Positions 614-31,297 of a DNA stretch of 32,000 bases are shown here, in pieces; the first letter of the stretch is position 1; each line of letters starts with the position of its first letter. The stretch covers positions 30,001 to 62,000 of the forward strand of contig MWMI01000004.1 in the NCBI GenBank assembly GCA_003568775.1. Reading direction: 5' to 3'. The notes beneath the pieces are model-generated. The model did no database searches. It had not been told where the DNA came from and worked only from the letters and a program-made list of their open reading frames with translations. The DNA comes from Candidatus Nanoclepta minutus (lineage in GTDB: Archaea > Nanobdellota > Nanobdellia > Nanobdellales > Nanobdellaceae). Both the position numbers and the translations under genes were made by a program.

Positions 614-1912
614 ATGGATATTATTATAGGAAGAAGTGTTGGTGATATCGAAAAGTTTGGAAAAGAGGGAACTATTTTCATCGGTAAGGAATACGTAAAA
701 ATGGAAAACGTTATGTCTCTAGCAAACGATATATATTTAGATGTTAATTTTCCTCATATAATACTCATAGCCGGAAAAAGAGGACAAGGTAAATCCTATA
801 CCTTAGCATCAATTATCGAAAGTATATCACTATTAGAAGAAGATCTATTGAAGAATATAGTAAACGTAGTATTCGATACGATGGGTATTTTCTGGACTAT
901 GAAATTCCCAAACTATAGAGATGCTGAACTTTTGGAGGAATGGGGTTTAAAGGCAAAGAGCTTAGAAAACGTTAAAGTTTACGTACCAGAGGGTGCAATA
1001 GAAAAATATAGAGAACTCGAAATACCTATAGATGGGACTTTTACCTTAAATCCCTCAGACTTAACAGAAATTGAATGGGTAATTACCTTTGGAATAAAAC
1101 CTAACTCTCTTTTGGGAATATATTTACAAAAAATAATAAGAGAAATTAAGAGAAGAGAGGGTAACTTTTCTATTGATGATATCATATCATATATAGAAAG
1201 GAAAAAATTGGATATAAAGATAAAAGAATCCTTAATAAATTATTTTGAAAATGCTAATAGCTGGGGAATCTTTTCTTCAAAATCTCCAACTTTAAAAAAC
1301 ATCCTAACACCCGGAAAAGTCATAATATTAGATCTATCTCTATATACGACAGTATTAGGTGGATGGTCCGTTAAGAATCTAGCAATAGGACTAATTTCAA
1401 AGAAGATATTCTATGAGAGGATGCTATGGAGGAAGAGGGAAGAACTAGAAGAAGCCCATCTAGGTCTGAGTATTAGGGAAAGGGAGCTCCCACTAATTTG
1501 GATATATATAGATGAGGCCCATGAGGCAATACCGAAAGATAGCGTTACACCGGCTACCGAACCATTATTACAGATAATAAGGGAAGGAAGACAACCTGGG
1601 ATATCTCTAGTCCTAGCAACACAGCAACCTGGAAAGTTGGTTGAAGATTCTCTATCACAGGCGGATATAATAATTTCACACAGAGTTACTGCAAAGAAAG
1701 ATCTAGAAGCATTAAATGAGATTATGAAAAACTTTTCGATTCAGGATATTGAAATATATATGAATGAAAACCTCCCAAAAAGAAAAGGTGCAGCTTTAAT
1801 CTTAGATGACAAATCAGAAAAGATATATCCCGTACAAATAAAACCTAGGATCTCCTGGCATGGTGGACAAGATGCTATGTTGATCAGAAAGAGAACATGG
1901 TTAGAGGTATAA
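614..1912 (+). CDS. HerA/FtsK-superfamily P-loop ATPase (COG0433/DUF87-like), short N-terminus
   Basis: Walker A GKRGQGKS (aa 54-61, nt 773-796), Walker B WIYIDEAHE (DEAHE at nt 1511-1525), and REGRQPGISLVLATQQPGKL...IISHRV sensor/arginine-finger region typical of HerA-like ATPases. Only about 53 aa precede the P-loop. Confidence 0.75.
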   Translation: MDIIIGRSVGDIEKFGKEGTIFIGKEYVKMENVMSLANDIYLDVNFPHIILIAGKRGQGKSYTLASIIESISLLEEDLLKNIVNVVFDTMGIFWTMKFPNYRDAELLEEWGLKAKSLENVKVYVPEGAIEKYRELEIPIDGTFTLNPSDLTEIEWVITFGIKPNSLLGIYLQKIIREIKRREGNFSIDDIISYIERKKLDIKIKESLINYFENANSWGIFSSKSPTLKNILTPGKVIILDLSLYTTVLGGWSVKNLAIGLISKKIFYERMLWRKREELEEAHLGLSIRERELPLIWIYIDEAHEAIPKDSVTPATEPLLQIIREGRQPGISLVLATQQPGKLVEDSLSQADIIISHRVTAKKDLEALNEIMKNFSIQDIEIYMNENLPKRKGAALILDDKSEKIYPVQIKPRISWHGGQDAMLIRKRTWLEV

Positions 1913-3552
1913 CAAAGGAGGTTGAGGCTTTAATTGCAATTGTTATATTCACACTCTTTATTATTTTCTATTTTAATATGGTTAATATAGGAATTGTAAA
2001 TAGGATAAGGTTTTATCAGGATTTATACTATAAATTATCTCTTTCTGACTCAATATTAAAATCTATAGAGAAGGAAGGATACATTATAACTTTAAATGTG
2101 TCTATTCCAAAATATTCGAGAGAATTCATCTGTAATATATCCGATTATAACTTAAGAAAGGATTTTTGTGAGAATTTCCCGATCTTTTATCCCCTAAATA
2201 TCTCCTTCCTTACAAACCTGACAGGGGCTTTAAACGGCACAAACAACACTATCTTAGACCCTAATTTAGGGATTTTTTTATACGCAAACTTCAGTGAATT
2301 CTATTGTGAAGAGGATAAAGGATATGTAATTGTAAAGATTTCGAATCCGTTCGATAAAAGTTTAAGCAATATAAACGTCTTGGTTATGTCTCCTACGATA
2401 TACAAATGGCTAGAGGATGGTTCTTATATTAACATAAATGAAAGTTATAAGTTCTGCTACCTAAATACAAATGGCGATTGCGGAAATTCTACCTATAACT
2501 CAATTGGTATAGTTATACAATTATATAACTTTAATAAAAATTCTTCAATTTATCTAAAAATATCTAAAAGTTATTATAACTATGCTAGCAACTTAGGAAA
2601 AGTCAATATAACCTCTCTCCCATATAGGATAGCCTACGAACCTTCCTGCTACAGGGAATATAACTTTATAATAACCGATAATATTAAATACGACTTCAGC
2701 AACTATAACGATCTATCATGCACTATTTCAGAAATTAGAAATAGTTTCCTTTCAATAAGGTTTATTCTAAACGATATAGCACTCTTCTATAACACCTATA
2801 ACTATATTTTCTTTGATAATGCTTCTATAGCAAATGGAGATTTTACGACTAAAAGAGATATATCAGAGAACATATCCTGTATCAAGATATTTGACTCCTC
2901 TATAGGAGAAATAGGATATATCATTTTTTCTAAAACAAATTGGTCAATTATATCTATATATAATAGCTTATATCCATATATAAATCTGTTTTATTGGGGT
3001 CCCTTTGGTGAAATAAACTTTAAAAGCTTTTTCTATATTTATAGGTTTGAATCTTATGATCAAAAAAGCTATCTTAATAATTCTTACTTCAATATACTTT
3101 TCAGAAACCAAACATACTTCGGTATCATCTCTAAATCATCAGCCGGCATTATTTCATACTATAAAATCATGGTCAATATCCCGAATCCTCCAGAGATGCC
3201 AGGAGAAAAAGATATCCTAAACAGGTTTAATATATCCTATTATGAAAAATCCTATACAAATAAAGAATATATCTACTTATATTTACTGTCAGATTCCTCC
3301 AACCAATTACTAATTCCCATAGGAGTCTATTATAAATTTAAAATACCAAATGCAACGATATCTAAAATTGAAAAAATCAATTACATAGATATAGAAGACC
3401 TCTCAATGATTAATAATGCTTCATTTAGGATAGATGGATTAAAATTAACCTATGGAACTGTTGAAGACAAAAAATTCTCCAAATCTTACTATACATACTT
3501 ACTCTATAATAATACGTTAATAAAGGATACTATAACAATTTATCTAAAATGA
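1897..3552 (+). CDS. Large N-terminally anchored or secreted Asn/Tyr/Ser-rich protein, putative N-glycosylated surface protein with a pilin-like N-terminus
   Basis: N-terminus is MVRGITKEVE followed by about 18 hydrophobic residues. I count 20 N-x-S/T sequons by eye. Composition is beta-rich. The ATG lies 16 nt inside the end of the ATPase gene. Confidence 0.6.
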   Translation: MVRGITKEVEALIAIVIFTLFIIFYFNMVNIGIVNRIRFYQDLYYKLSLSDSILKSIEKEGYIITLNVSIPKYSREFICNISDYNLRKDFCENFPIFYPLNISFLTNLTGALNGTNNTILDPNLGIFLYANFSEFYCEEDKGYVIVKISNPFDKSLSNINVLVMSPTIYKWLEDGSYININESYKFCYLNTNGDCGNSTYNSIGIVIQLYNFNKNSSIYLKISKSYYNYASNLGKVNITSLPYRIAYEPSCYREYNFIITDNIKYDFSNYNDLSCTISEIRNSFLSIRFILNDIALFYNTYNYIFFDNASIANGDFTTKRDISENISCIKIFDSSIGEIGYIIFSKTNWSIISIYNSLYPYINLFYWGPFGEINFKSFFYIYRFESYDQKSYLNNSYFNILFRNQTYFGIISKSSAGIISYYKIMVNIPNPPEMPGEKDILNRFNISYYEKSYTNKEYIYLYLLSDSSNQLLIPIGVYYKFKIPNATISKIEKINYIDIEDLSMINNASFRIDGLKLTYGTVEDKKFSKSYYTYLLYNNTLIKDTITIYLK

Positions 3553-3869
3553 GGGGTTGGGTGATCCTTCTAGAGACAATCTTCTCTATCATTCTACTAA
3601 CATCCGCATACCTATACCTATCGAATAATATAAATTTTCAAAAAAGCTACAATTTAAACATTGAAAGTGAATACTTTAGGACATTTTCCGAAGGATGCGC
3701 TAGTAACTATGTCTATTTGATTTTATTCTTAGAAAATAACCAAACCTTAGTATGTATAAATGGAAGAATTGGATCAATAGAGGAATTAAAGGGATATAGC
3801 TTAACAAAAACTTATATATTCTCAGGAAAAGATTCCTATAGGCCATTTATATTGTATATTTACACATGA
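3549..3869 (+). CDS. Small pilin-like protein (N-terminal MRG-WVILLE-hydrophobic helix)
   Basis: ATGA overlap with the upstream gene. MRGWVILLETIFSIILLTSAYLYLSN resembles a class III (prepilin-type) signal, with Glu six residues after the RG. Confidence 0.5.
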   Translation: MRGWVILLETIFSIILLTSAYLYLSNNINFQKSYNLNIESEYFRTFSEGCASNYVYLILFLENNQTLVCINGRIGSIEELKGYSLTKTYIFSGKDSYRPFILYIYT

Positions 3870-4306
3870 AAACCCAATATATCTTAGTTGCATCCTTGAT
3901 ATTACTGTCTATACTATTTTCAATTTTTTACAATACCACCTCACAGAATAAGAAGAGTGATATAGAACTCTATAAGAGGAATTTAGAAGATGAAATCTAC
4001 TATATATCCAGAGAACTGTCTAAATCTTATGTTGGAAACTTTTTAAGAGATTTTAAATTTTATATAGAGAACTTAGGCTATAACTTCACGTTCATCTGTA
4101 TATCACCAATATACTTAGGTATAGATATCTGTAAGGATCTTAACTCTGTAAATTGCTGTTACTATTTCAATAGTTCAATAAACGTAAATAAGACTTTACT
4201 TAAGTTCTGCGATAAGGAATTTGCAATATACAACGAGGGAATATTATGCATCTGTTATAATATCTCCTCAGGAAACTCTTACTATTCAGACTTTATTTGC
4301 ACTTAG
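3866..4306 (+). CDS. Small Cys-rich secreted or membrane-anchored protein
   Basis: ATGA overlap with the upstream gene. N-terminal hydrophobic helix MKTQYILVASLILLSILFSIFY, 8 Cys and 5 N-x-S/T sequons. Confidence 0.5.
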   Translation: MKTQYILVASLILLSILFSIFYNTTSQNKKSDIELYKRNLEDEIYYISRELSKSYVGNFLRDFKFYIENLGYNFTFICISPIYLGIDICKDLNSVNCCYYFNSSINVNKTLLKFCDKEFAIYNEGILCICYNISSGNSYYSDFICT

Positions 4307-4763
4307 ATAAATAGATTCTTCCAGATGAAGTATTAATCGCCAAACAAAAATCGTTTGAGAAACTAATGTTGCTGTAATCAAGAAAATAAAGTGGAACCTT
4401 AATAGAAAAATTATATTCAAACATATTACCCATTTTGTTTACAGTCAAATTCGTATAAACTCTGCTTGGGGTATAGTTATAAGATGCATAATACATAATA
4501 TATATAATATCCGAATTATTAAACAAGTACAAGGAAGCGTAGTCCGGCAATTTTCCACTAACTGAAGTTAAACAGTTTCCGCAGTTTTTATAGGTTATCA
4601 TAGAGACGTATATATCCACCAAAGTATTCTGTATATTGCTTACATCAATCTTTATCCTCTCCCTCGAGGATATTATGTTAGAATAGTAGAGGACGTAGGA
4701 TATGGCTAAAAGTGTAAAGGAAGTATATATCAAAAATTCAACCCATAAACTTACATCCCTCAT
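4293..4763 (-). CDS. Small pilin-like secreted protein, co-oriented with and coupled to rps19e
   Basis: MRDVSLWVEFLIYTSFTLLAISYVLYYSN has the same R-[GD]-x5-E-hydrophobic layout as the 106-aa and 551-aa proteins. It has 6 sequons and 4 Cys. Its ATG forms an ATGA overlap with the rps19e stop. Confidence 0.5.
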   Translation of the reverse strand: MRDVSLWVEFLIYTSFTLLAISYVLYYSNIISSRERIKIDVSNIQNTLVDIYVSMITYKNCGNCLTSVSGKLPDYASLYLFNNSDIIYIMYYASYNYTPSRVYTNLTVNKMGNMFEYNFSIKVPLYFLDYSNISFSNDFCLAINTSSGRIYLSKCK

Positions 4764-5269
4764 AAATAATTCTTTATTTGTTCAACTATATTTTTGTTAC
4801 TCTCCATAAGTTCCCTATATATTTCGGAAGATAGCCTATCTATCAAACTCCTTCCTTGGCTAGTAACAACTCTCCCTTTCCTTTTTCCTTCCAATGACTT
4901 AGTTACTAAACCTGCCATCTCTAACTGTTGTAATATGGTTCTTACAATTTTTCCATATCCTCTCTTAAATTTACCAACTTCCATTCCTCTCTTTCTAAGA
5001 CCCCCATATTTCTTTCTCAGCCTAGAAATGCCAATGGGACCCCTTAAGTATACCTGCCTTAATACCGACGCTGCCCTATAATACCACCAACCTGGTCCTC
5101 CCTGATAATCCTGGTCTGCTGGGAAGTCTGGTGGTCTCTCATTGTGAGGACCAGTTTTTACGAATTTCGCCCAGTAAGGAGGTTTAATTATATCTTTATA
5201 ATTTTCAAATAGATATCTCGCTAATCTATCAACGAGGATTTGCCCAGGTACTTCGAAAGCTGTTGGCAT
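4760..5269 (-). CDS. rps19e: 30S ribosomal protein S19e (eS19)
   Basis: YWAKFVKTGPHNERPP...WWYYRAASVLRQVYLRGPIGISRLRKKYGG is the characteristic eS19 signature. Confidence 0.92.
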   Translation of the reverse strand: MPTAFEVPGQILVDRLARYLFENYKDIIKPPYWAKFVKTGPHNERPPDFPADQDYQGGPGWWYYRAASVLRQVYLRGPIGISRLRKKYGGLRKRGMEVGKFKRGYGKIVRTILQQLEMAGLVTKSLEGKRKGRVVTSQGRSLIDRLSSEIYRELMESNKNIVEQIKNYL

Positions 5270-5291
5270 TCTTTAAAATAAATGTATAACC

Positions 5292-5301
5292 TTTAAAAAT
5301 A
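5292..5301. promoter_or_regulatory. Central TATA-like box shared by divergent rps19e and rpl37ae (51-nt spacer)
   Basis: tttaaaaata is centred about 25 nt from the rpl37ae ATG (5321) and about 27 nt from the rps19e ATG (5269). A second ctttaaaa copy lies at 5271-5278. Confidence 0.3.
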
Positions 5302-5320
5302 CATTTACGTATTTCTATAT

Positions 5321-5539
5321 ATGTCTCATACTAAACTCGTAAGATCTGCTGGAAGGTTTGGATCAAGGTATGGAAGAGGAATTAGAGAGCTCGTCTCGGA
5401 AATCGAAAGTCAATATAGGAATAAAAGGTTAGTCTGCCCATACTGTAACTATAAAGCTGTAAAAAGGATAGCATTTGGAATATGGTATTGCGAAAAATGC
5501 GGTAAAAAGTTTGCAGGTAAAGCCTATAGCATAAAATGA
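5321..5539 (+). CDS. rpl37ae: 50S ribosomal protein L37Ae (eL43)
   Basis: TKLVRSAGRFGSRYG plus CPYC...CEKCG zinc ribbon, 72 aa. Confidence 0.92.
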   Translation: MSHTKLVRSAGRFGSRYGRGIRELVSEIESQYRNKRLVCPYCNYKAVKRIAFGIWYCEKCGKKFAGKAYSIK

Positions 5540-5679
5540 TCTATTACCTCTGTATAAGCTGTGGAAGAAAGGTTCCACATGAACTTGTCAAAAAAAAGGT
5601 TAAATGTCCATATTGTGGAGGAAAAATACTCATAAAATATAGACCTCAGAACGCTATAAAGCATATTAAGGCAAGATGA
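5536..5679 (+). CDS. rpoP: DNA-directed RNA polymerase subunit P (Rpo12/RpoP)
   Basis: Not in the ORF track because it is under 60 aa. Hand translation gives MIYYLCISCGRKVPHELVKKKVKCPYCGGKILIKYRPQNAIKHIKAR (47 aa), a CxxC...CxxC zinc ribbon. ATGA overlaps occur at both ends. The position after L37Ae is the conserved archaeal order. Confidence 0.85.
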   Translation: MIYYLCISCGRKVPHELVKKKVKCPYCGGKILIKYRPQNAIKHIKAR

Positions 5680-5876
5680 AAGTAGAGCTATTATTTGATG
5701 ATAAAGATTTTATAGAATCTGTTAGATTTTTAGAGGACAAAGAATCTATAAGAATTATGGAAAACTGTATTTTAATAGAAAAAACCGAAACTTCAAAAAT
5801 AAGAGCTTCAGTTAATCTAATAATGAGATTAGCAAAAATAAATGAAGACTTGGGGAGGACCCTGTCCAAACTGTAA
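5676..5876 (+). CDS. Probable KEOPS subunit Pcc1-like protein
   Basis: 66 aa. The C-terminal [20 protein letters not shown] resembles the Pcc1 helix (ALRGTVNSYLRWIKAAIDV in Pyrococcus, recalled from memory). The neighbourhood with L37Ae and RpoP is consistent with this call. Confidence 0.5.
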   Translation: MKVELLFDDKDFIESVRFLEDKESIRIMENCILIEKTETSKIRASVNLIMRLAKINEDLGRTLSKL

Positions 5877-6306
5877 ATCCGATAATACAGAAATAAATTA
5901 TTTAGAATACGATTTACCTGAGATCGGTAGGATACTGATAGTATCCTTCCTATGCCATAACTGCCTCTTGAGGTATTCCGATATATTCCCAGAATCCATT
6001 AAACTTAAGGATTATAGAATAACAATAGAAAGTATAGATGATATAAGAAATAAGAGAATATATAAAATACCCGAATTTGAAATAAAGTTAGAAGAAGTTG
6101 GGATAGAGATTAAACAAATATCAAAAAGCAAATTCATGGTTTATACTGTAGATGGATTTATTATGGAAATTATAGACTTTCTAAAAGAATATTCCAAAAA
6201 TATCGAAGATAAAAGGGAAGAGATAAATGAAAAAATTAAATACTTAGAAGAAGTATTGAAAGGAAAAAGAAGGCTAACTATTTCTATAAAGAAATCTATT
6301 TCTTAA
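5842..6306 (+). CDS. ZPR1-type C4 zinc-finger protein (COG1779-like)
   Basis: CPNC...([10 protein letters not shown])...CHNC followed by a beta-rich domain, as in archaeal ZPR1-related proteins. The longest ORF overlaps the upstream gene by 35 nt, so the start is uncertain. Confidence 0.6.
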
Positions 6307-6811
6307 TTACTCTCCTTATAAACTCTATAGCATATTCCCTATCCCTCCAACCTTTTACTTTTACCCATTTACCAGGTTCTAAATCCTTATAATGTTCAAA
6401 GAAATGTTTTATTTCATTCTTTATAGCTTGAGGTATATCGTTAACGTCTCTTATCCAAGAATACCTTGGATCTACCTTGTCTATAGGTACAGCTATTAGT
6501 TTTTCGTCCCTACCTTTTTCGTCTTCCATTTCAAGCAATGCAACGGGTCTAACTTTTACTATACATCCTGGCAAAAGTACTTCAGAGGATAGTACTAGGA
6601 CATCTAAAGGATCCCCATCCTCACATAAGGTACCTAGGATGAAACCATAGTTTAGAGGATAATACATATTAGTATAAAGTATTCTATCTACAAACAACGT
6701 TCCGAACTCCTCATTATATTCATATTTTACTCTACTACCCTTGCTAATCTCTATGATTGCGTATAATTCATCTAAAATATTCTCATCTATCTTTATATTT
6801 TTAAAATTCAT
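6296..6811 (-). CDS. ppa: Inorganic pyrophosphatase, family I
   Basis: [12 protein letters not shown]...[33 protein letters not shown] contains canonical family I PPase motifs. Confidence 0.92.
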
Positions 6812-10109: not shown

Positions 10110-11456
10110 ATGCTTCTGAAAGGGGAACTGAGGAAATTCTATGAAAACAATAGAGAAGTCGTTGAAGACATAGTTCAAATTTCCCAAAATAGGGAAGTTG
10201 GATATTTATTAGAAAATATGAAATTTGGTAATAGACCATCAGTTATAGAGAACACTGGTGATATATTCAACTTAATAGATAAAGGTGCTGTTTCGTTCCA
10301 TATATCTTTAGAAAGATGGTCCAACCCACTAATGCTAAAGGAAGTTAAGTCTAAGAGAGAAATGAACGATCTTAGAATAGGTTGGGACCTTATACTTGAT
10401 ATAGATTCTGAAAACATTGAAGTATCAAAGATAATAGCTAGAGAAATCCTAGATTTTTTGTTTGAAAAGGATATAAAGAAAGTCTATATAAAATATTCTG
10501 GAGGAAAAGGATTTCATATAGCCATACCATGGGAAACCTTTCCTGAAAGGATAGAATACACAAAAAAAGAAGATTTAGTAGAGGAAGAAACAAAAAACCT
10601 TTTTCCAGATTTAGCAAGAGAAATGGCATTATATATAATGGAAAAGACTAAAGAAAGATTAGAAAAAAGAGCTACATATAAATACCCAGAAATATTTGAA
10701 AAGATCGATAAAGATTCTATTTCTTCGCTTATAAAGATTGATACAATAGCTATATCTAATAGGCATTTAATTAGATGTTTATACTCGATAAACGAAAAGA
10801 CAGGAAGGATATCTATACCAATAGATGTAAGGAATATCGAAAAGTTCAATCCAAAATATGCTGAAATCAACAACTTCGTATATGAAGGCATACCTTTCCT
10901 AACAGAAGAGATTAAGGATGGATATAAGATAGAAAGGTTTCTTAGAGACGTAATAAACTGGAAGATAAATAACATGCTAGTATCTGGAAGAACTTTCATT
11001 GAAACAACAAGTATTGAAACACCTGAAGAAGAAAAAATAAAGAGAAAATTAAAAATAGAAAAAAATAAGTATAAGGGAAAAATCTCTGAAGATCTCTTTC
11101 CACCATGCATAAAAAATATACTTTCGGGTGTTTCAGATGGAAGAAAAAGATCTATTTTCATTTTAATAAACTTTTTAAAAAATATTGGATGGGAATTTGA
11201 CGAAATAAATAAAAAATTGATTGAATGGAATAATAAATTAGAAGATCCATTAAGAGAAAGATATATAGATTACCAAATTGAGTGGCATAAAAGGGCATAT
11301 TCAAAGGATAAGCAGTATCTCCCGCCAAACTGCGATAATGAGATGTACTATAAGGAAATAGGTGTCTGTCAACCAGATGAAGTATGCAAATATATAAAGA
11401 ATCCAATATTATATCCCTATAAAAAGCTGGGGCTGAAGAAAGAAAGTAAAAAATAA
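10110..11456 (+). CDS. DNA primase, single-chain fusion of a PriS catalytic module and a PriL C-terminal Fe-S-type module
   Basis: The PriS part has WDLILDIDSEN (DxD) and YSGGKGFHIAIPW. The C-terminal part has FPPCIKNIL...GRKRSIFILINFLKNIGW plus three further Cys (PPNCD, GVCQPDEVC), compatible with 4Fe-4S ligands. Confidence 0.8.
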   Translation: MLLKGELRKFYENNREVVEDIVQISQNREVGYLLENMKFGNRPSVIENTGDIFNLIDKGAVSFHISLERWSNPLMLKEVKSKREMNDLRIGWDLILDIDSENIEVSKIIAREILDFLFEKDIKKVYIKYSGGKGFHIAIPWETFPERIEYTKKEDLVEEETKNLFPDLAREMALYIMEKTKERLEKRATYKYPEIFEKIDKDSISSLIKIDTIAISNRHLIRCLYSINEKTGRISIPIDVRNIEKFNPKYAEINNFVYEGIPFLTEEIKDGYKIERFLRDVINWKINNMLVSGRTFIETTSIETPEEEKIKRKLKIEKNKYKGKISEDLFPPCIKNILSGVSDGRKRSIFILINFLKNIGWEFDEINKKLIEWNNKLEDPLRERYIDYQIEWHKRAYSKDKQYLPPNCDNEMYYKEIGVCQPDEVCKYIKNPILYPYKKLGLKKESKK

Positions 11457-22601: not shown

Positions 22602-23498
22602 TTAATCTCCTTTCCTTATAGCATAAATATAGCCTATTTTCATATTAGGATTGGATGCAGAAGGGTTGTAAATATTTTTAGGTTTTGTATATTTTACATC
22701 AAAACCGTTATCTTCTAAATAATTATATAACTCTTCATAACCATAATGATATTCGATTTGAATTCTTTTGAACCTTTTTATTATATCTCTATCTTCGCTC
22801 AATATGTTATACTCACATCCTTCACAATCCATCTTTAGTACTGCCTCTTTGATATTAAACATCGAAAGTATTGTTTTTAAGGAATACAAATTTATTAACT
22901 TACCCTTCTCATCTTCACTTTCTTTTAGGTCAGATCCGATATCTGGTATAAAGCTTTCATCTATTCTCATTACTCTATCCTTACCATATCCCGCATTCAA
23001 CGGTATTATTTTATCTGTGCAACCATTTATGTTTATATTTTCGGTTAATAACTTAAAAAAGTAAGGATAAGGCTCTAACGCAATAATCTTTTTGGCTCCC
23101 TCAATACAAAAATAGATAGAAGAATCTCCAATGTTTGCTCCAATGTCGATAACTACTTCATTCCTTGGATTTAAAAATTTGTATTCTTCATTAGCGAAAA
23201 CTGATACTAAATCTCCTTTCCAAGGTTCGATAAACTTTAGTTTGTGTTCTTTAAATATAAGAATAATTTTGTTATTTTCGATATCAATATCCTTAATATT
23301 GGGATATTTAAGTAAAAAAGCATACAAAGATGCCAACTCAGGATTTACTTCACATTTTTTTCCATTACTTCTAAGGATAACCTTTATTTTATAATTTGAT
23401 TTACTACTCAATTTTCTAACTCTATATAAATTATATAATATAAATATCCAATTCCGATAAGCTTTTCTGTAACGAGATATTATATCGATAAACCTCAT
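22602..23498 (-). CDS. FkbM-family SAM-dependent methyltransferase
   Basis: VIDIGANIGDSSIYF...ALEPYPYFFKLL...LKMDCEGCEYNIL pattern of FkbM methyltransferases. Confidence 0.8.
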   Translation of the reverse strand: MRFIDIISRYRKAYRNWIFILYNLYRVRKLSSKSNYKIKVILRSNGKKCEVNPELASLYAFLLKYPNIKDIDIENNKIILIFKEHKLKFIEPWKGDLVSVFANEEYKFLNPRNEVVIDIGANIGDSSIYFCIEGAKKIIALEPYPYFFKLLTENININGCTDKIIPLNAGYGKDRVMRIDESFIPDIGSDLKESEDEKGKLINLYSLKTILSMFNIKEAVLKMDCEGCEYNILSEDRDIIKRFKRIQIEYHYGYEELYNYLEDNGFDVKYTKPKNIYNPSASNPNMKIGYIYAIRKGD

Positions 23499-23770
23499 AT
23501 TTTAATTTATTTTACTCTACAATATTATTAAATATACACTTAATGACTGCGTATTTCATATACCTTAAGCGCTTAACAGATTCGTGATTCAAATAAATTA
23601 AAGAAACATTGAAAAACATAGATAGAGAAATAATTAACAAATTTAAAAACCAAAAAGCTGATATTATATCATAGATATTAAAAAGAAATAGCTAGTTATT
23701 TATCAGACTAAGAATTCAATAATTAACTAAAAAGCAAATTCATTTTAATTATTTTAGATTTTCTATATAA

Positions 23771-24895
23771 CTAAGATAAAAATATCTCTTCAAATTTATC
23801 AACTACCTTTTTGATATCAAACAATTCCCTTGCTCTTTTAGCAACGTATTTTCTCTTTTCAAAATAACCTCTTGGATCTTCCTTCCAAAAGGTATAAATT
23901 TCTAATATTTTATTTGCAAAGGCTTCCGGATTATAACTATTTTTGATCCAACCAAAGTTCTTATCATAAATATTTAATAAATCCCTAAAGGCAACTATAT
24001 TAGATCCTAAAAACGGGGAACCTGAGACTAGGGCTTCTACAACAGCTATTGGAAATCCTTCAAATCTAGAAGGAATAAAAAATAGAGAAGATTTTGATAA
24101 GATTTCTCTTTTGGTATTTTCATCTACAAATCCAAAATATTTAACGTTTTCTGGATATTTGCTTTCTAATAATCTTAGCATTTCTTCATACTTTTTATCT
24201 CCAGAACCTGCAACATAAAACTTTATTTCTTTATTTTTATCCAAAACCTTCTTTATAGCTTCTATTAATACATCAAATCCTTTTTGTTCATGAATCCTAC
24301 CCATAAACGTTAGTATAAACTCTTTATTATCTTTAGGATAAAGATATTCTTTAGAATTAACAAAATTAGGAACTAAATAAACGTTTTTAAAACCTAATTT
24401 TTCATAAAATTCCTTTTGAGCGGAATTTAAAATATGAATATATATTTTATGCTGATATTTTAACATTTTATTTTCCATTAATTTTATAATATGAATTTTA
24501 TATCTCCATTTTCTGTCATTATAATCTAAAAATGTAGTGTGATTTCCTATAATAATTCTATTTGCCTTTTTTGTATATATAGAGAGGATGGGGTGTAAGA
24601 AATAGGAAGTAAAATTAACCAGATAAATATAATCTACATCTTTTAAAAGCATTAAGTCGCATAGACCTCTAAAAACCCTAAAGACTCCATTAGAGAATTT
24701 ATTTGATAATATATATCTAAACTTAATTATTTTTCCTAAATCTTTTGGCTTAATCCTAAACAGATCTCCATAATTACTAGAAATAACCCATACATTATAC
24801 TTCCTATCAACAAGTTCGTTTCCTATCTTTATAACCCAATTCTCAGTACCTGCATATGTTTCTAGCCTAGTAAAAACAAAGAATACTATCTTCAT
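23771..24895 (-). CDS. Glycosyltransferase, GT-B fold (GT4-like)
   Basis: MGRIHEQKGFDVLIEAI...FIPSRFEGFPIAVVEALVSGSPFL (E-x7-E region). Confidence 0.85.
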   Translation of the reverse strand: MKIVFFVFTRLETYAGTENWVIKIGNELVDRKYNVWVISSNYGDLFRIKPKDLGKIIKFRYILSNKFSNGVFRVFRGLCDLMLLKDVDYIYLVNFTSYFLHPILSIYTKKANRIIIGNHTTFLDYNDRKWRYKIHIIKLMENKMLKYQHKIYIHILNSAQKEFYEKLGFKNVYLVPNFVNSKEYLYPKDNKEFILTFMGRIHEQKGFDVLIEAIKKVLDKNKEIKFYVAGSGDKKYEEMLRLLESKYPENVKYFGFVDENTKREILSKSSLFFIPSRFEGFPIAVVEALVSGSPFLGSNIVAFRDLLNIYDKNFGWIKNSYNPEAFANKILEIYTFWKEDPRGYFEKRKYVAKRARELFDIKKVVDKFEEIFLS

Positions 24896-24930
24896 AAAAC
24901 TTTAAAGTTGGATTTAATATTTAATAGTTT

Positions 24931-25959
24931 ATGAAGCTCGGTATTTATGGCACTATTTATAATAACGCAGATACTGTAAAAACTACGATAAAGACATTAG
25001 TTAATTCTATTGAGGACCTATTTGATGAAATAATCTTCGTTATAACAGATAATTACTCTGATGATGGAACATACGAAAAACTTTTAGAGCTGAAAAAAGA
25101 ATATGAAAACTCTAAAATAAAAATAGAGATAATAAGAGAAAAAAGTACAAGGGGAAAAGGAAGACAAATCGCAATGGAATATCTTATAAACAATTATGAT
25201 ATAGATTTCGTGACATATACGGATTTCGATATAACATATTACCCATTTCAAAGAGACATCTTCAAAGCAATCATTGATAATATAAAAGATTATGAAATAT
25301 GGGGAGGTGTTGCTGGTCTTGCTACATATAAAACGTATAAAAGAATACTAGAAAGAGGAATCGAATGGCCTGATACAAACTTTTACGAAGATAACACATT
25401 CTTTTATCTTATTTCTACTAAAGCAAAAATACTGATAAAAGATTTATGCACTATTGGACACTCAAATGCTATCGTATATAATATCAATAGAGAAAAAAGA
25501 TATGCAAAAACAACTTTAAGATGGATCAAAAGATATCTAAAGACACAGTTAGATATATTAAGATCTTCTTTAACAATTTGGAGAGACATAATAAATATGA
25601 AAAATATCGCATTTGGAAGAAAAATTTTTAACTTGGCTAAGGGAATAAATGCTCATTACTTACTAGAAAATATGAGAATTTACATTCTCCCTGAGGAAGT
25701 AGGTTTACCAGAAAACACATTCTATAGGTTCAGTACATATGCTCCTAGAATGTTATTAGCTAAAATAATTGATGATAAAAAAGCTAAATTTATAAAAACT
25801 AGAGGTTTTCATTTCTTTAGAGACTTAAAGTTTGCTAAAAAATTTATAGAAGATCATGAAAAAGCTATATATAGAAATTTTGACTTTGACATAAATAAAG
25901 TTGAAATATATAAAATAAGTGAAATATTTGAAAAAGTACCTTATTTAATACACTACTAA
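24931..25959 (+). CDS. Glycosyltransferase, GT-A fold (GT2-like) with an extended C-terminal region
   Basis: IYGTIYNNADTV...IIFVITDNYSDDGTYEKL...RGKGRQIAME...TDFD (DxD-like). Confidence 0.75.
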   Translation: MKLGIYGTIYNNADTVKTTIKTLVNSIEDLFDEIIFVITDNYSDDGTYEKLLELKKEYENSKIKIEIIREKSTRGKGRQIAMEYLINNYDIDFVTYTDFDITYYPFQRDIFKAIIDNIKDYEIWGGVAGLATYKTYKRILERGIEWPDTNFYEDNTFFYLISTKAKILIKDLCTIGHSNAIVYNINREKRYAKTTLRWIKRYLKTQLDILRSSLTIWRDIINMKNIAFGRKIFNLAKGINAHYLLENMRIYILPEEVGLPENTFYRFSTYAPRMLLAKIIDDKKAKFIKTRGFHFFRDLKFAKKFIEDHEKAIYRNFDFDINKVEIYKISEIFEKVPYLIHY

Positions 25960-27149
25960 TGAGGATTTTACTATTTCATCCATGGATAAAATCAAAAGGA
26001 GGTGCAGAGAGGTTAATATTAGAATACATAAGAAGATCTAAACATAAAATAGATATATTAACTTGGGTTTATTTATCAGATAAAAGCTTTGAAGAATTCA
26101 AAAAATACAAAATTATAAGCATATTTCCAGAATATTTAGAATCTGTATCTAGAAGCTTTTTATTAAGGGGAAGTTTTGGAATCCTTTCTATAATAAAAAA
26201 TATATTAAAAGAAGGTTTTATTGAGAATTACGATCTCTTATTGATAAGCACTTCCGGTATAGCCGAACTAATCTTATTAAACAAAAAAATAAATATACCT
26301 GTTGTTTTATACGTTCATACACCCCTAAGAGCAACCTATAAATATGATATCTATTGGAACTTTAAATACAGGTTTAAAAATGTTTTATATAAAGCAGTAT
26401 ATAAACTTGCTCTACATTCTTATAATTATTTAGAGAGAAAAGCATGGAAAAGAGTTAGCTTTGCGATATTTAATTCAGAATTATCCAGAAAAAGGGCTTT
26501 AGATAAAAAACTAATAGATATAGAAAAGACAAAGGTAATATATCCGGGGGTAGATATCAATTTAGAACCCAAAAACCAAGAAAACTACTTTCTTTATATA
26601 AGTAGAATTGGGATGGCTAAAAGGCAAGAAATACTACTATATACATGGAAAATGTTTTCAAAAAAATATGGGGATTATAAACTAATATTAGCCGGAAATC
26701 TAGAAAACAAAAAGTATTATAGAAAATTGTTAAGGATAATAAAAGTCTTTAATCTTAGGAATGTAGAAATTCTGACTAATCTACCATCAGAAAAAATAAA
26801 AGGATTACATGAACATTCCCTATGTGAAATACAGGTTCCTTTTATGGAAGATTTTGGAATTGCACCATTAGAATCTGTTGCTGCTGGAAAATACTTAATA
26901 AACGTTTATCCATCTGGAAATTACGAATTGTTAAAAGATTTTCCTGGTATATACTGGATAAAAGAAAGAATAGACAATATAAAAATGGCAAGGGAAGTCT
27001 ATAAAGCTATGGAATACTTTATAAAAAATCAGGATAAATTAATAAACCTAGGATCAGAAAACAGAAAAAGATTTAAAAGATTAGATTTGTCTTGGGATAG
27101 ATTCGCAAAAGAAATGGATAAAACCTTGGAAAGTCTAATATTTTATTGA
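25959..27149 (+). CDS. Glycosyltransferase, GT-B fold (GT4-like)
   Basis: MRILLFHPWIKSKGGAERL...YISRIGMAKRQE...MEDFGIAPLESVAAGKYLI. TAATG junction with the upstream GT2 gene. Confidence 0.8.
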   Translation: MRILLFHPWIKSKGGAERLILEYIRRSKHKIDILTWVYLSDKSFEEFKKYKIISIFPEYLESVSRSFLLRGSFGILSIIKNILKEGFIENYDLLLISTSGIAELILLNKKINIPVVLYVHTPLRATYKYDIYWNFKYRFKNVLYKAVYKLALHSYNYLERKAWKRVSFAIFNSELSRKRALDKKLIDIEKTKVIYPGVDINLEPKNQENYFLYISRIGMAKRQEILLYTWKMFSKKYGDYKLILAGNLENKKYYRKLLRIIKVFNLRNVEILTNLPSEKIKGLHEHSLCEIQVPFMEDFGIAPLESVAAGKYLINVYPSGNYELLKDFPGIYWIKERIDNIKMAREVYKAMEYFIKNQDKLINLGSENRKRFKRLDLSWDRFAKEMDKTLESLIFY

Positions 27150-28187
27150 AGATTCATATATTTCCTTAAGACTCTTATTTCTATTTCCAATACTAAACTT
27201 ACCGTATTTTATTTCTTTCCAAGCATTTAAAGAAATCTCTTTAATTAAGTTAGTATTCTCTATTAAGCTACTTATAACATCTGTATATTTCTTTATTTCA
27301 TCTTTATCTCTCTTTATTATATATCCTGTCTTTTCGTTCTCTATTATCTCTCTTCTAGCAAATCCCTCAGAGGTAACAACTACATTACCATATGACATCG
27401 CTTCCAAAATTGTAAAACCGAAACTATCTGAATAACCTGGATAAACATATATATGAGATTTTCTGTATAAATTCCTTAATCCTTCATCAGTTAAAGATTC
27501 TAACCATTTAATGAAATTATATTTCTTTAAGATCTTATCTGATATCCATTTTTTTGGTGTTACAATAAACATCTCTATATCATACCTCTTATTTAAATTT
27601 TCAAAGACTTTTAATACGGTACTTCCACCTTTAGCATAAAAATATCTTGCTACAAATAATAATCTTATTTTATCAAAATCCTTATCTACATATTCTTCGG
27701 CAGGTACTGCTGGATAAATTACTTTTAGTTTTTCTCTTATTTTAGGATCTTTTCTTATTTCCTCTGGTATAGTATTATACGCCTCATAAGTCCATGGTAG
27801 TAGATATTTTAGATTCTTTTGCTTAAATAATTTTTTTATAATAATCTTCCCGATCCCGGAATAAGCTGGATAATGCGTAAAAAAGAAGATATAATAATGC
27901 TCAAAGTCTGTAACATATGGTTTATCTGTAAATAAAAATAAATGAGAAGTATGATATAGATCTAAATCTGAACTAGATACTTTTCTAATTTTAAAAATAG
28001 GAAATCTACCAATAGAAGAATAAATAATCCTCTTTACTTTTAAATAACTAATAAATTTTCTTGAAGATGTTATAAGAGTATCCTTTATTTTATTTAAATA
28101 AATAACTCCGTCTGGCGGGTACAAAAATAAGTATTTATAATAAGAAGAATCTAGCTTTCCTAGACTCTCTACTCTAACTTTTATCAT
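27135..28187 (-). CDS. Glycosyltransferase, GT-B fold (GT4-like)
   Basis: LLFVARYFYAKGGSTVLKVFENL...VYPGYSDSFGFTILEAMSYGNVVVTSE. Confidence 0.8.
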   Translation of the reverse strand: MIKVRVESLGKLDSSYYKYLFLYPPDGVIYLNKIKDTLITSSRKFISYLKVKRIIYSSIGRFPIFKIRKVSSSDLDLYHTSHLFLFTDKPYVTDFEHYYIFFFTHYPAYSGIGKIIIKKLFKQKNLKYLLPWTYEAYNTIPEEIRKDPKIREKLKVIYPAVPAEEYVDKDFDKIRLLFVARYFYAKGGSTVLKVFENLNKRYDIEMFIVTPKKWISDKILKKYNFIKWLESLTDEGLRNLYRKSHIYVYPGYSDSFGFTILEAMSYGNVVVTSEGFARREIIENEKTGYIIKRDKDEIKKYTDVISSLIENTNLIKEISLNAWKEIKYGKFSIGNRNKSLKEIYESSIKY

Positions 28188-28240
28188 ATAACAAACACAC
28201 AGAAGGAAAATTTATAAAAACTTATATTCAAGCTATTTAG

Positions 28241-29056
28241 ATGTCTGGTAAATATATAAATTATATTAAATGGTACATTGGCAGTATAAATAGCATAAGC
28301 GGTATTGGTAAATTAAAATTTGCAGCTACAGCACCAATACTTTTTGTTTATAATAAAATTAAAGGTAAAAGGGATAATATAAAGAATATAACCCGTTTCG
28401 ATCTTACTGTAAAGGTCTATGGGCATAAATTCGAATGTAGGAAAAACACACTTGATATAAGCTACATCATAAATTTCGAACCGGAAACCACAGAATTTTT
28501 GTTAAATAAAAAAGGAAAAATATTCATAGATGTTGGAGCACATATCGGAAGATATTCTATATTGCTTTCTAAAAACTTCGAAAAAATAATTTCCATTGAA
28601 GCTGATCCATATAATTATTCTCAATTGATTAGAAACACAAGATTAAATAGTCTATGGAATAAAGTAATACCGCTGAATATTGCCCTAACAAATAATGATG
28701 GGATACTTAAATTAAACCTTTCAGAAGAAGGAGACGGAACACATTCAATTGTTGTTAATTATGGAAAAGGAAGCATAGAAGTCTTAGGTCTTAAACTAGA
28801 TACGGTAATAGATTTATTAGGAATAGATCCAAAGGATATAGATGTAATTAAAATAGATGTAGAAGGGGCAGAATACTTCGTTCTACAGGGAATGAAAAAG
28901 GCTTTGAAAGATGGAAAACCAGTATTGGTTATTGAAATATGGGAAGATTCTAAATATAAAGAAAAAACTATAGAATTATTAAAAAAGTATGGATATAAAA
29001 TGATAAAAGAATTGGATAAAGGTTATGCTACAAATTACATTTTTGTTAAAGAATAA
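28241..29056 (+). CDS. FkbM-family SAM-dependent methyltransferase
   Basis: FIDVGAHIGRYSILL...SIEADPYNYSQL...IKIDVEGAEYFVLQGM. Confidence 0.8.
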   Translation: MSGKYINYIKWYIGSINSISGIGKLKFAATAPILFVYNKIKGKRDNIKNITRFDLTVKVYGHKFECRKNTLDISYIINFEPETTEFLLNKKGKIFIDVGAHIGRYSILLSKNFEKIISIEADPYNYSQLIRNTRLNSLWNKVIPLNIALTNNDGILKLNLSEEGDGTHSIVVNYGKGSIEVLGLKLDTVIDLLGIDPKDIDVIKIDVEGAEYFVLQGMKKALKDGKPVLVIEIWEDSKYKEKTIELLKKYGYKMIKELDKGYATNYIFVKE

Positions 29057-29653: not shown

Positions 29654-31297
29654 ATGGTTTCACTAGAAGAGCTAAGGAAAGAAAATCTAGGAGAGAAACA
29701 TAAGGTATTTGAATCTAAAATAATCTTAGATGATCCAAGATATAGGTTAGAAAGCATATACTTTTGGTTATTAGATTTCTTAAGGGATGATTTAAAATTA
29801 AATGTTTCAAAAATTTCCGATGAATTTGGAGGATCTTTCGGATCAGTTTTCTATACAGATATAGTTAGAAGGGCTCAAAGCATTTTAACTACTGCAAGAG
29901 AGATTGGAGGTCTATTAAATACGATAATAAAATCTATTGTAGACGTAAGTAACTCTTATAGAACTCTAGTATTCGAAAGATTACATAAATTTGAAGATTT
30001 AAAATCCGATAATCCAGAGAAATCTTATACAGCATTAAAGGCTTTAAAATCCCTTTGGCTTGATAACGTAGATTCGAGGAAGGGAACATATGCTCTCAGG
30101 AACTTGATTAAAGCAGGATATTCAACAGTTATCGATCTATTTTTATTAGCGGAAGATGGAGAAAAACTAAATGAACTTATATCTAAAGGAATTGCAAACA
30201 AAAGTATCCTAAACCATCCATCCTATAGGGAGATATCTTACTATGAAAAGAATAAAATTGTTAATGAAAGAGTTATATCTTTAGTAAAAACTAGATTAGC
30301 GGAGTTCTATGGTTGGCTAGAGGAATCTGAAAAGTATTTTAAGGAGAGAGCAAAATATTTAAAAGCTTACTTATTACATCAAGTAAATTCCCTAATTTAT
30401 TATTTAGAAATTGCTAAACCATACTTCAAAGCTGCAAGAGCTTTAAAACAGAAGGAATATAATATTCCAGATATAGTAAAAGGTTTCGAATCAGCAATAA
30501 TTGAGATAACATTATTTGCAACCGATAAAGAGAAAGAATTAACAGAATGGGACAAAGATAAGAAAGATTTTATTAAAAAGAAATATATACCCTTATTCGA
30601 AGTAAACATAATAGCGAGGGTTAGACCAACACTACAGGCTATTTCCGTTGAAAGGACAGCCATGTATACATACATAGGAAGGATAGACATAGAGTATAGA
30701 GCATACGTCTTAACTAGGGAGGAATATGATGAGCTAGTAGCTAATAAGGAAATAGAGGATATCTTATATATACAAGGGATGACCGAAACCTTCTTAGAAG
30801 GGATTACAGACGTTATATGCAACGTATACCTATATGAAAAAGTTATTTCTAATAGTAAGTTATTGGAAACTGCGAAGAAATTCCTAAATAAGGATGAAAT
30901 AACTAGTGAGAGGGATATTGTTTGGACTAAAGAACTAGTAAAAGAGCTAGAAAAAGTTGATAAGAATTTTTTAAAGGGATTGGAATGGATAAATAAATAT
31001 TTACCTTCTAAAGAGGAATTAGAAAAAAAGGAAGAAAAGAAAGAGGAAGAGAAAAAGAAAGAAAATACAATAAGCCTTATCTTCCCAATAGCTAAACCCG
31101 CTGCTGATATATTCAAGAGCCTATTATATAATATATTTGAATTTATAGTAACCTATGGGAAGGATATATCAAACATAAGGTATTCTACTTCAAAGAAAAA
31201 ATTGGAAAAGGAAAGGGGAGATTTCATAGATGATGTAAAGAAAAAAGCTTGGCTAATATTCAATACCTCAAAGAAAAGCTTTGGTCTTGTAGCTTAA
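29654..31297 (+). CDS. Hypothetical 547-aa predominantly helical protein with a C-terminal Lys/Glu-rich linker
   Basis: Long ORF with normal coding composition. No P-loop, transmembrane helix or family motif recognised. KE-rich tract EELEKKEEKKEEEKKKEN near the C-terminus. Confidence 0.6.
   Translation: MVSLEELRKENLGEKHKVFESKIILDDPRYRLESIYFWLLDFLRDDLKLNVSKISDEFGGSFGSVFYTDIVRRAQSILTTAREIGGLLNTIIKSIVDVSNSYRTLVFERLHKFEDLKSDNPEKSYTALKALKSLWLDNVDSRKGTYALRNLIKAGYSTVIDLFLLAEDGEKLNELISKGIANKSILNHPSYREISYYEKNKIVNERVISLVKTRLAEFYGWLEESEKYFKERAKYLKAYLLHQVNSLIYYLEIAKPYFKAARALKQKEYNIPDIVKGFESAIIEITLFATDKEKELTEWDKDKKDFIKKKYIPLFEVNIIARVRPTLQAISVERTAMYTYIGRIDIEYRAYVLTREEYDELVANKEIEDILYIQGMTETFLEGITDVICNVYLYEKVISNSKLLETAKKFLNKDEITSERDIVWTKELVKELEKVDKNFLKGLEWINKYLPSKEELEKKEEKKEEEKKKENTISLIFPIAKPAADIFKSLLYNIFEFIVTYGKDISNIRYSTSKKKLEKERGDFIDDVKKKAWLIFNTSKKSFGLVA

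Follow-up and report, generated by a model that had tools for sequence, protein, structure and literature searches.

A pilin-like gene cassette beside a HerA-paralog ATPase gene in Candidatus Nanoclepta minutus and related nanoarchaea

In a stretch of 32,000 nucleotides of the Candidatus Nanoclepta minutus genome (contig MWMI01000004.1 of assembly GCA_003568775.1, positions 30,001 to 62,000; hereafter the window), we examined a block of five genes, in which the gene of a compact ATPase of the HerA clade is followed by those of four secreted, pilin-like proteins of 551, 106, 146 and 156 residues (the cassette). Nanoarchaeota depend on attachment to a host; for their filaments and for the molecules of this contact, the cassette offers four concrete, conserved and extracellular-looking candidates, encoded in cultivated strains. 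An earlier reading of the sequence (the original prediction) had proposed that a HerA-family motor and pilin-like glycoproteins form an undescribed attachment or translocation module. In our view, the block has about an even chance of being a composite operon, that is, a pilin cassette served by a separate pilus core, plus a co-transcribed HerA paralog with an independent core function. The cassette probably supplies the filament subunits that had been missing for the type IV pilus of nanoarchaea, and a functional link between the ATPase and this pilus is hypothetical. We base this on the gene structure and its conservation, the HerA-clade fold of the ATPase, the pilin-like architecture of the four proteins, and the adjacency of a pilus core to the cassette in one relative.

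ORF calling recovered the five open reading frames (ORFs) at the coordinates of Table 1; their products are identical to entries RIB35199-RIB35203 of Nanoclepta minutus / Nanoarchaeota NZ13-N, and the ORFs, motifs, overlaps, and sequon and cysteine counts given originally were reproduced exactly. The block is found again in Nanobdella, Nanopusillus, Nanobsidianus Nst1 and YN1, with 30-45% protein identity and invariant cysteines, and the ORFs are thus real genes. The cassette genes correspond to MJ1_0637-0640 in Nanobdella and to Nps_02805-02820 in Nanopusillus, and are also found in the cultivated YN1.

Each of the four cassette proteins has exactly one predicted hydrophobic segment, which is N-terminal, and the N-termini are the best-conserved feature of these families, all starting with an M[KR]x-type leader followed by a hydrophobic helix. 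The large protein begins with MVRG-ITKEVE (family consensus M[VA][RK][GS]-I.K.[VIL]E[GA]), the 106-residue protein with MRG-WVILLE (family MR[GSN]-W[IV][IV]L.E, Glu9 being invariant), and the 156-residue family with M[KR][GDS]-[VI]SLW[VI]EFLIYT; the 146-residue family has MK[ST]QYIL and the hydrophobic helix, but lacks the Glu that is buried in the helix of the others. Such a residue is a hallmark of type IV pilins. The other three families all carry it, invariant and in one common register, near position 9 (+5/+6), and in 94 loci it was seen in none of the remaining ORFs whose N-terminus is hydrophobic. An hhalign comparison of the 156-residue family with each of the others found weak similarity confined to the N-terminal helix, so that the original description of four related ORFs is true only for the N-terminus and does not extend beyond it.

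The 551-, 106-, 146- and 156-residue proteins carry 20, 1, 5 and 6 sequons and 8, 2, 8 and 4 Cys, respectively. Sequon density reaches 3.4-3.8 per 100 residues in three of them, roughly double what their composition predicts (20 against 8.6 expected in the large protein), and is at most 1.8 per 100 residues in all other ORFs of the window. Among 10 aligned orthologues of the large protein, which measure 531-741 residues in relatives, the FCENFPIFYPLN motif and the cysteines are conserved; two Cys are nearly invariant in the 106-residue family, most of the eight are conserved in the 146-residue family, and four are invariant in the 156-residue family. The AlphaFold model of the 156-residue protein (pLDDT 87.7) has a 52-residue helix (6-57) followed by an eight-strand beta domain (63-154). 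By this model and the alignments the cassette proteins have a pilin-like architecture, with leader and helix in all of them and the predicted 'lollipop' shape in the 156-residue protein only, and their original description as type IV pilin-type secreted glycoproteins is supported by helix, Glu and sequons.

The four families are narrow and specific to the lineage of thermophilic nanoarchaea. In a set of 1.84 billion representatives the large-protein family amounts to only 5 clusters (50% identity), and a metagenome scan with its profile found only two loci, both carrying the same block; the 156-residue family comprises 23 clusters, all from Nanopusillaceae where the source names the organism. 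Another of the loci that we compared (numbered with L), L009, has on the minus strand (84-599) a Cys-rich ORF of 171 residues, which starts with MKSVSLYLEYLLLF and resembles the 156-residue family at the N-terminus, being otherwise unrelated to it. This similarity suggests that more pilin-like genes are scattered through these genomes. Within the window, a low-GC (25-27%) glycosylation cluster at 22602-29056 encodes two FkbM-type methyltransferases, three GT4 glycosyltransferases and one GT2, and could make glycans for the sequon-rich proteins.

Several observations weigh against the pilin assignment. Pfam, NCBIfam and PADLOC searches with the four proteins and 31 orthologues returned nothing meaningful, the profiles of three of the four families had zero matches to PDB sequences at E up to 10, and no Foldseek match in the PDB links the cassette proteins to a known pilin family; of the profile and fold checks proposed originally, those on the ATPase led to the HerA clade, and those on the cassette proteins led to no family. 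At the putative cleavage site, the preceding residue varies between orthologues (G, S, D, N or I) and is thus not always the G/A/S of canonical sites. The annotation of Nanopusillus acidilobi contains no A24 prepilin peptidase, and none is recognisable in two nanoarchaea (Makarova 2016). The search for a prepilin peptidase and for AglB, also proposed originally, came back with an N. acidilobi annotation from which the words prepilin and oligosaccharyl are both missing, though archaellum proteins are expressed (PMC4935971); the host Acidilobus has an A24 peptidase and STT3 (PMC4935971, Supplementary Data 1). In the N. acidilobi proteome, which covers just about 200 proteins, the five proteins were undetected.

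The lack of matches to pilins, the variable -1 residue and the unrecognised prepilin peptidase would also fit four signal-anchored (type II) membrane glycoproteins of a non-filament surface complex, for example a cone or attachment organelle, or an S-layer anchor. Nanoclepta and Nanobdella make archaella, and cryo-tomography of Nanobdella revealed another kind of filament as well as an attachment organelle, neither of them as yet assigned to proteins. An organelle with no assigned parts favours the non-filament complex, as does the pilus core of Nanopusillaceae, which is not adjacent to the cassette. We nevertheless consider a non-filament complex unlikely, since the helix Glu occupies the same register in three unrelated families and is missing from the other ORFs with an N-terminal anchor, the tandem arrangement of a large protein with several small ones is reminiscent of minor-pilin operons, one of these proteins has the predicted helix-plus-beta shape, and the cassette adjoins pilus assembly genes in one relative.

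This relative is represented by locus L006, where an M48 protease gene, the ATPase gene and genes for proteins of 541, 92 and 130 residues directly precede a pair of T2SSF genes (TadC-like) and a single T2SSE gene (CpaF/PilB-like). YN1 has the orthologous T2SSF/T2SSF/T2SSE trio (L094, 6755-13455), with a pilus ATPase 55% identical, situated between the ribosomal protein S19 and 23S rRNA genes and about 80 kb from the cassette; no pilin or other subunit gene lies beside this trio. The cognate pilins of the nanoarchaeal pilus ATPase 'could not be identified' in an earlier survey (Makarova 2016), and CpaF/TadC loci were reported to be conserved in cluster 2 of DPANN, a superphylum of small archaeal symbionts, Nanoclepta included (Hamm 2024). 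That the evidence for a pilus core in Nanoclepta itself comes from this last report counts against our preferred explanation. By tblastn and Pfam the window contains no T2SSE/T2SSF, A24 peptidase, NurA, Mre11 or Rad50 gene, in agreement with what was originally described, both for the pilus ATPase, platform and prepilin peptidase and for the repair partners of HerA. The idea that a HerA motor replaces the PilB/PilC machine is not supported, given the TadC/TadC/CpaF core, found beside the cassette in L006 and at a separate site in YN1. That the pilus has its own dedicated ATPase and platform argues against the HerA-clade ATPase as a part of the machine.

Other type IV filament genes occur near the ATPase gene in sister lineages. 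L021 has a pair of archaellin-family genes 0.7 kb downstream of its large-protein gene; the product of one, MEVPIAHV..., scores 36.2 bits with Pfam Arch_flagellin, above the cut-off of 29.5, and another archaellin-family protein from a sister lineage, MKG-IATV..., scores 23.9 bits, below it. The leaders of these proteins are minimal or missing, so that very short leaders are nothing unusual among the type IV filament proteins of the clade. In L009 (5410-7250) and L010 (2970-3871), FlaF/G-like genes are found about 1 kb upstream of the ATPase gene on the other strand, one of them being fused to a DUF2341 domain in L009 (461 residues) and apparently split in L010.

With the type IV pili of archaea and the TadC/CpaF loci of DPANN, the cassette thus shares the short, positively charged leader, the hydrophobic helix with its buried Glu, a beta-rich, putatively glycosylated globular part, tandem subunit genes and, in L006, the adjoining T2SSF/T2SSF/T2SSE genes. 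It differs in having no match to a known pilin family or fold, in the variable -1 residue and in the unrecognised prepilin peptidase, and in Nanopusillaceae it is detached from the pilus core and attached to the gene of a HerA-paralog ATPase.

As judged from sequence matches and its predicted model, this ATPase is a member of the FtsK-HerA superfamily with the HerA core fold. The HerA central domain, Pfam DUF87, matches it at 48.3 bits (cut-off 23.2), and Walker A GKRGQGKS (residues 54-61, nucleotides 773-796), Walker B IYIDEAHE (residues 297-304, nucleotides 1502-1525) and the arginine region REGRQPGISLVLATQQP (REGRQPG...QQP; residues 323-339, nucleotides 1580-1630) are invariant in 28 homologues. 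A profile of 28 ATPase sequences matches HerA chains in the PDB (8xau, 3.5e-14; Sulfolobus solfataricus 4d2i, 1e-9), and the AlphaFold model (pLDDT 89.1) aligns in Foldseek with 9x1m_A, 4d2i and 8xau at E values of 1e-16 to 1e-20 and TMq 0.6-0.68. The top match is Thermococcus kodakarensis HerA-NurA (E 2.7e-20, TMq 0.68), and further top matches are S. solfataricus HerA and anti-phage HerAs. The protein is probably a compact hexameric translocase of the HerA clade, and by homology its substrate is most likely nucleic acid.

The original prediction had placed the system closer in logic to VirB4/CedB-type translocation, an affinity that these comparisons do not bear out, the best sequence and fold matches being HerA-NurA and anti-phage HerA. 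No VirB4, TrwB or FtsK chain is among the top 50 Foldseek matches, and in Pfam CagE_TrbE_VirB is unmatched and TrwB_AAD_bind reaches just E 0.017, below the cut-off. A VirB4/CedB relative was therefore rejected on Pfam and Foldseek, in a comparison that covered VirB4/CagE, TrwB and FtsK and had CedB outside its range. The block is like the Ced/Ted import systems (CedB with CedA/A1/A2) and VirB4 conjugation in placing a HerA/FtsK-superfamily ATPase gene beside genes for small membrane or filament proteins, but the N-termini of its filament candidates are type IV pilin-like and not VirB2-like, no VirB4, CagE or TrwB family outscores HerA on the ATPase, and the operon has no gene for a polytopic CedA/VirB6-like channel.

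The ATPase is not a canonical HerA either. As had been suggested originally, it has no full HAS barrel: just 53 residues precede the P-loop, modelled as three short strands and one helix. Against the NCBIfam HerA equivalogs it scores 30-46 bits, with cut-offs of 800-970 (helicase_HerA, 37.1 against 970; HerA_Thermprot, 30.4 against 800). The syntenic gene of N. acidilobi, Nps_02800, is tabulated as 'HerA helicase', arCOG00284, and is followed in the table by four proteins with a single transmembrane segment and then by S19E (PMC4935971, Supplementary Data 1). N. acidilobi also encodes an arCOG00280 HerA (Nps_01240) and NurA (Nps_03440), which identifies the ATPase as a HerA paralog rather than the repair HerA. 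Compared with the HerA-NurA end-resection complex, it shares the core fold, DUF87, Walker A/B and the arginine region, but is about 19% identical and has some 45 residues N-terminal to the core in place of the HAS barrel.

One might still see in the ATPase a plain DNA-repair HerA, or a component of an anti-phage HerA system, with the downstream ORFs as irrelevant neighbours. The top structural matches are indeed HerA-NurA and the Sir2/DUF4297-HerA defence complexes, and in NCBI the orthologue from Nanobdella carries the name 'DNA double-strand break repair helicase HerA'. PADLOC assigns mad8 of the MADS system to the ATPase over the full 314-position profile (E 3.3e-23) and finds partial matches to several HerA models, with no match for its neighbours; the full-length match suggests that mad8 and arCOG00284 are both compact, barrel-less HerA relatives. 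We regard the plain-HerA explanation as very improbable. Besides the missing barrel, the low equivalog scores and the separate HerA and NurA of N. acidilobi, no NurA, Mre11, Rad50, Sir2 or mad gene is a neighbour of the ATPase gene in any locus with Pfam-annotated neighbours. A canonical repair HerA was rejected on account of the separate arCOG00280 HerA and NurA, and membership of a defence island on account of the missing effector partner genes and of the conserved synteny, since a protein that at least 455 genomes share at 45-50% identity, and whose gene keeps a stable housekeeping context across a phylum, is unlike a mobile defence island.

These at least 455 genomes were found by scanning genomes that represent species; Woesearchaeota, Pacearchaeota and Nanoarchaeia have many homologues at 45-50% identity, and Nanoarchaeum equitans is not among the top matches. 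For the gene neighbourhoods, ORFs were called in 88 fetched loci and searched by phmmer. In Nanopusillaceae (Nanoclepta, Nanobdella, Nanopusillus, Nanobsidianus Nst1 and YN1) the order is strict on every contig long enough, and consists of the ATPase gene, the large-protein gene, the 106- and 146-residue ORFs, the convergent 156-residue ORF and the gene of ribosomal protein S19e. In L006 and L021 (ATPase 62-63% identical) the M48 protease and ATPase genes are followed by that of a 540-residue homologue of the large protein, and in L091 (ATPase 62% identical) the homologue overlaps the ATPase gene, the upstream context being different again.

In about 60 loci of the Woesearchaeota/Pacearchaeota type, the ATPase gene lies instead between an M48 gene and those of TYW2, FEN1 and PolB, the ORFs that follow it being variable and soluble, and no pilin-like ORF or T2SSE/F gene is found within 10 kb. 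In L089 (95-2751) and L090 (158-2814), where the ATPase is 57% identical, the tRNA-modification gene of a MiaB-like radical-SAM protein overlaps the ATPase stop by 4 nucleotides and occupies the slot of the large pilin-like gene of Nanoclepta. The independence of the ATPase is favoured by the at least 455 genomes that carry it, the roughly 60 loci without filament genes and the radical-SAM partner, together with the frequent overlaps in the window, its closeness to HerA in fold and sequence, and the separate canonical HerA and NurA of N. acidilobi. The neighbourhood conservation, a check proposed originally, is found in part, in that the ATPase-pilin order is kept in relatives, but most of the at least 455 genomes have no adjacent pilin-like gene.

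The M48 (HtpX-like) membrane protease gene adjoins the ATPase gene upstream in about two dozen loci (L003, L006, L021, L026-L053 and others), usually in divergent orientation, and is co-directional and overlapping in L006 and L021. To our knowledge, this second conserved partner of the ATPase has not been discussed before. A role in cell division was also considered: FtsZ and SepF genes lie 4-5 kb away in Nanopusillaceae, but this proximity is missing in other lineages, and the candidate was rejected. In a Nanopusillus-like metagenome contig, L093, a 450-residue ORF (5282-6634, plus strand), TnpB/OrfB-like as judged by eye, is located just upstream of the ATPase gene.

Translational coupling, as originally proposed, finds little support in the overlaps themselves. 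These are real: 16 nucleotides between the ATPase and large-protein ORFs (1897-1912), ATGA overlaps at 3549-3552 and 3866-3869 joining the 551-, 106- and 146-residue ORFs, and a 14-nucleotide tail-to-tail overlap of the convergent 156- and 146-residue ORFs. However, 14 of the 26 adjacent same-strand gene pairs in the window overlap, including the 156-residue ORF with the S19e gene; overlap is the default in this genome and by itself weak evidence of coupling. The adjacency of the ATPase and large-protein genes carries more information, as it persists with overlap in Nanopusillaceae, in L006/L021 and in L091, three lineages that do not share the same flanking genes, and its survival through these rearrangements suggests that the two form a real operon. 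This persistence weakens the full independence of the ATPase and speaks against the composite operon.

It speaks for an alternative in which the arCOG00284 ATPase is a second pilus motor and the operon, as originally proposed, a true contact or translocation apparatus; by analogy, such a motor might draw DNA or some other polymer across the envelope where the pilus is rooted, as in competence with ComFA, or energise export or retraction. Type IV filament genes are near the ATPase/large-protein pair in three arrangements (L006, L021 and L009/L010), the ATPase differs from the canonical HerA, which exists apart with NurA, PilT is missing from archaea (Makarova 2016), and type IV pilus loci are widespread in the DPANN lineages that carry the ATPase (Hamm 2024), so that the two may co-occur throughout the phylum. 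We find this coupling distinctly unlikely, given the roughly 60 distant loci with no filament gene near the ATPase gene, the radical-SAM gene that takes the overlapping downstream slot in a 57%-identical relative, the prevalence of overlaps, the lack of a membrane segment in the ATPase and of a channel protein in the operon, and a similarity to VirB4, TrwB and FtsK that does not exceed the HerA matches. The likeness to a competence pseudopilus (ComG) with a separate DNA-pulling cytoplasmic ATPase (ComFA) is one of analogy only, homology not being claimed, and no ComEC-like channel or ComEA-like receptor gene was seen. A broader version, quite improbable in our estimation, would have the arCOG00284 paralog, near-universal in Nanoarchaeota in the broad sense, act from the cytoplasm as the motor of an apparatus for uptake or transfer that depends on a type IV pilus, for instance for the import of host DNA or nucleotides, with a motor-filament link kept in the Nanopusillaceae operon and dispersed in other DPANN.

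In the composite operon that we favour, the ATPase would be a HerA-clade paralog (arCOG00284), conserved across Nanoarchaeota in the broad sense, that is co-transcribed with the cassette and is not the assembly motor, whatever role it may have. The cassette would supply one large, heavily N-glycosylated and disulfide-rich subunit and three small type IV pilin-like ones. The N-terminal helix would insert the four proteins into the membrane, the very short M-K/R-x leader would possibly be removed, and the separate TadC/TadC/CpaF-type machine would extract the subunits and polymerise them into an adhesive pilus or a short pseudopilus, on which the large protein may be exposed as tip or adhesin. 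Contact with the host or with a surface would be the likely use.

Table 1. Features of the ATPase-cassette block, in window coordinates
Feature	Position	Strand	Length (residues)	Basis and remarks
Compact HerA-clade P-loop ATPase, arCOG00284-type HerA paralog	614..1912	+	432	DUF87, profile, AlphaFold, synteny
Large pilin-like secreted protein	1897..3552	+	551	ORF, N-terminal helix, 10 orthologues; candidate tip/adhesin
Small pilin-like protein	3549..3869	+	106	ORF, hydrophobic N-terminus, alignment
Small secreted protein	3866..4306	+	146	ORF, hydrophobic N-terminus, alignment
Pilin-like protein	4293..4763	-	156	ORF, alignment, AlphaFold
Ribosomal protein S19e gene (context only)	4760..5269	-		Pfam Ribosomal_S19e on orthologous genes

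The start of the 156-residue ORF overlaps the S19e stop through an ATGA (4760-4763), and this arrangement is kept in most Nanopusillaceae loci. The two genes are probably co-transcribed, which might raise expression of the 156-residue protein and makes it a candidate major subunit.

In the literature searched, the ATPase-pilin gene order is undescribed and arCOG00284 and Nanobdella MJ1_0636-0640 are unmentioned, and the YN1 paper mentions neither pili nor HerA. What is likely new is a lineage-specific pilin set that is detached from its assembly genes and placed in operon with a HerA paralog; a motor-plus-pilus system is unlikely and is not supported. The analysis also draws attention to a widely conserved, uncharacterised HerA paralog, whose operon partner in these lineages hints at a role at the envelope. 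The leads from both the cassette and the HerA paralog are directly testable in existing co-cultures.

Two further ORFs of the window, both on the plus strand, are worth recording. The first (29654-31297) encodes a Lys/Glu-rich protein of 547 residues with no Pfam match and no hydrophobic segment. The second (10110-11456) encodes a 448-residue protein that carries both the small- and the large-subunit domains of DNA primase, so that the two subunits are fused.

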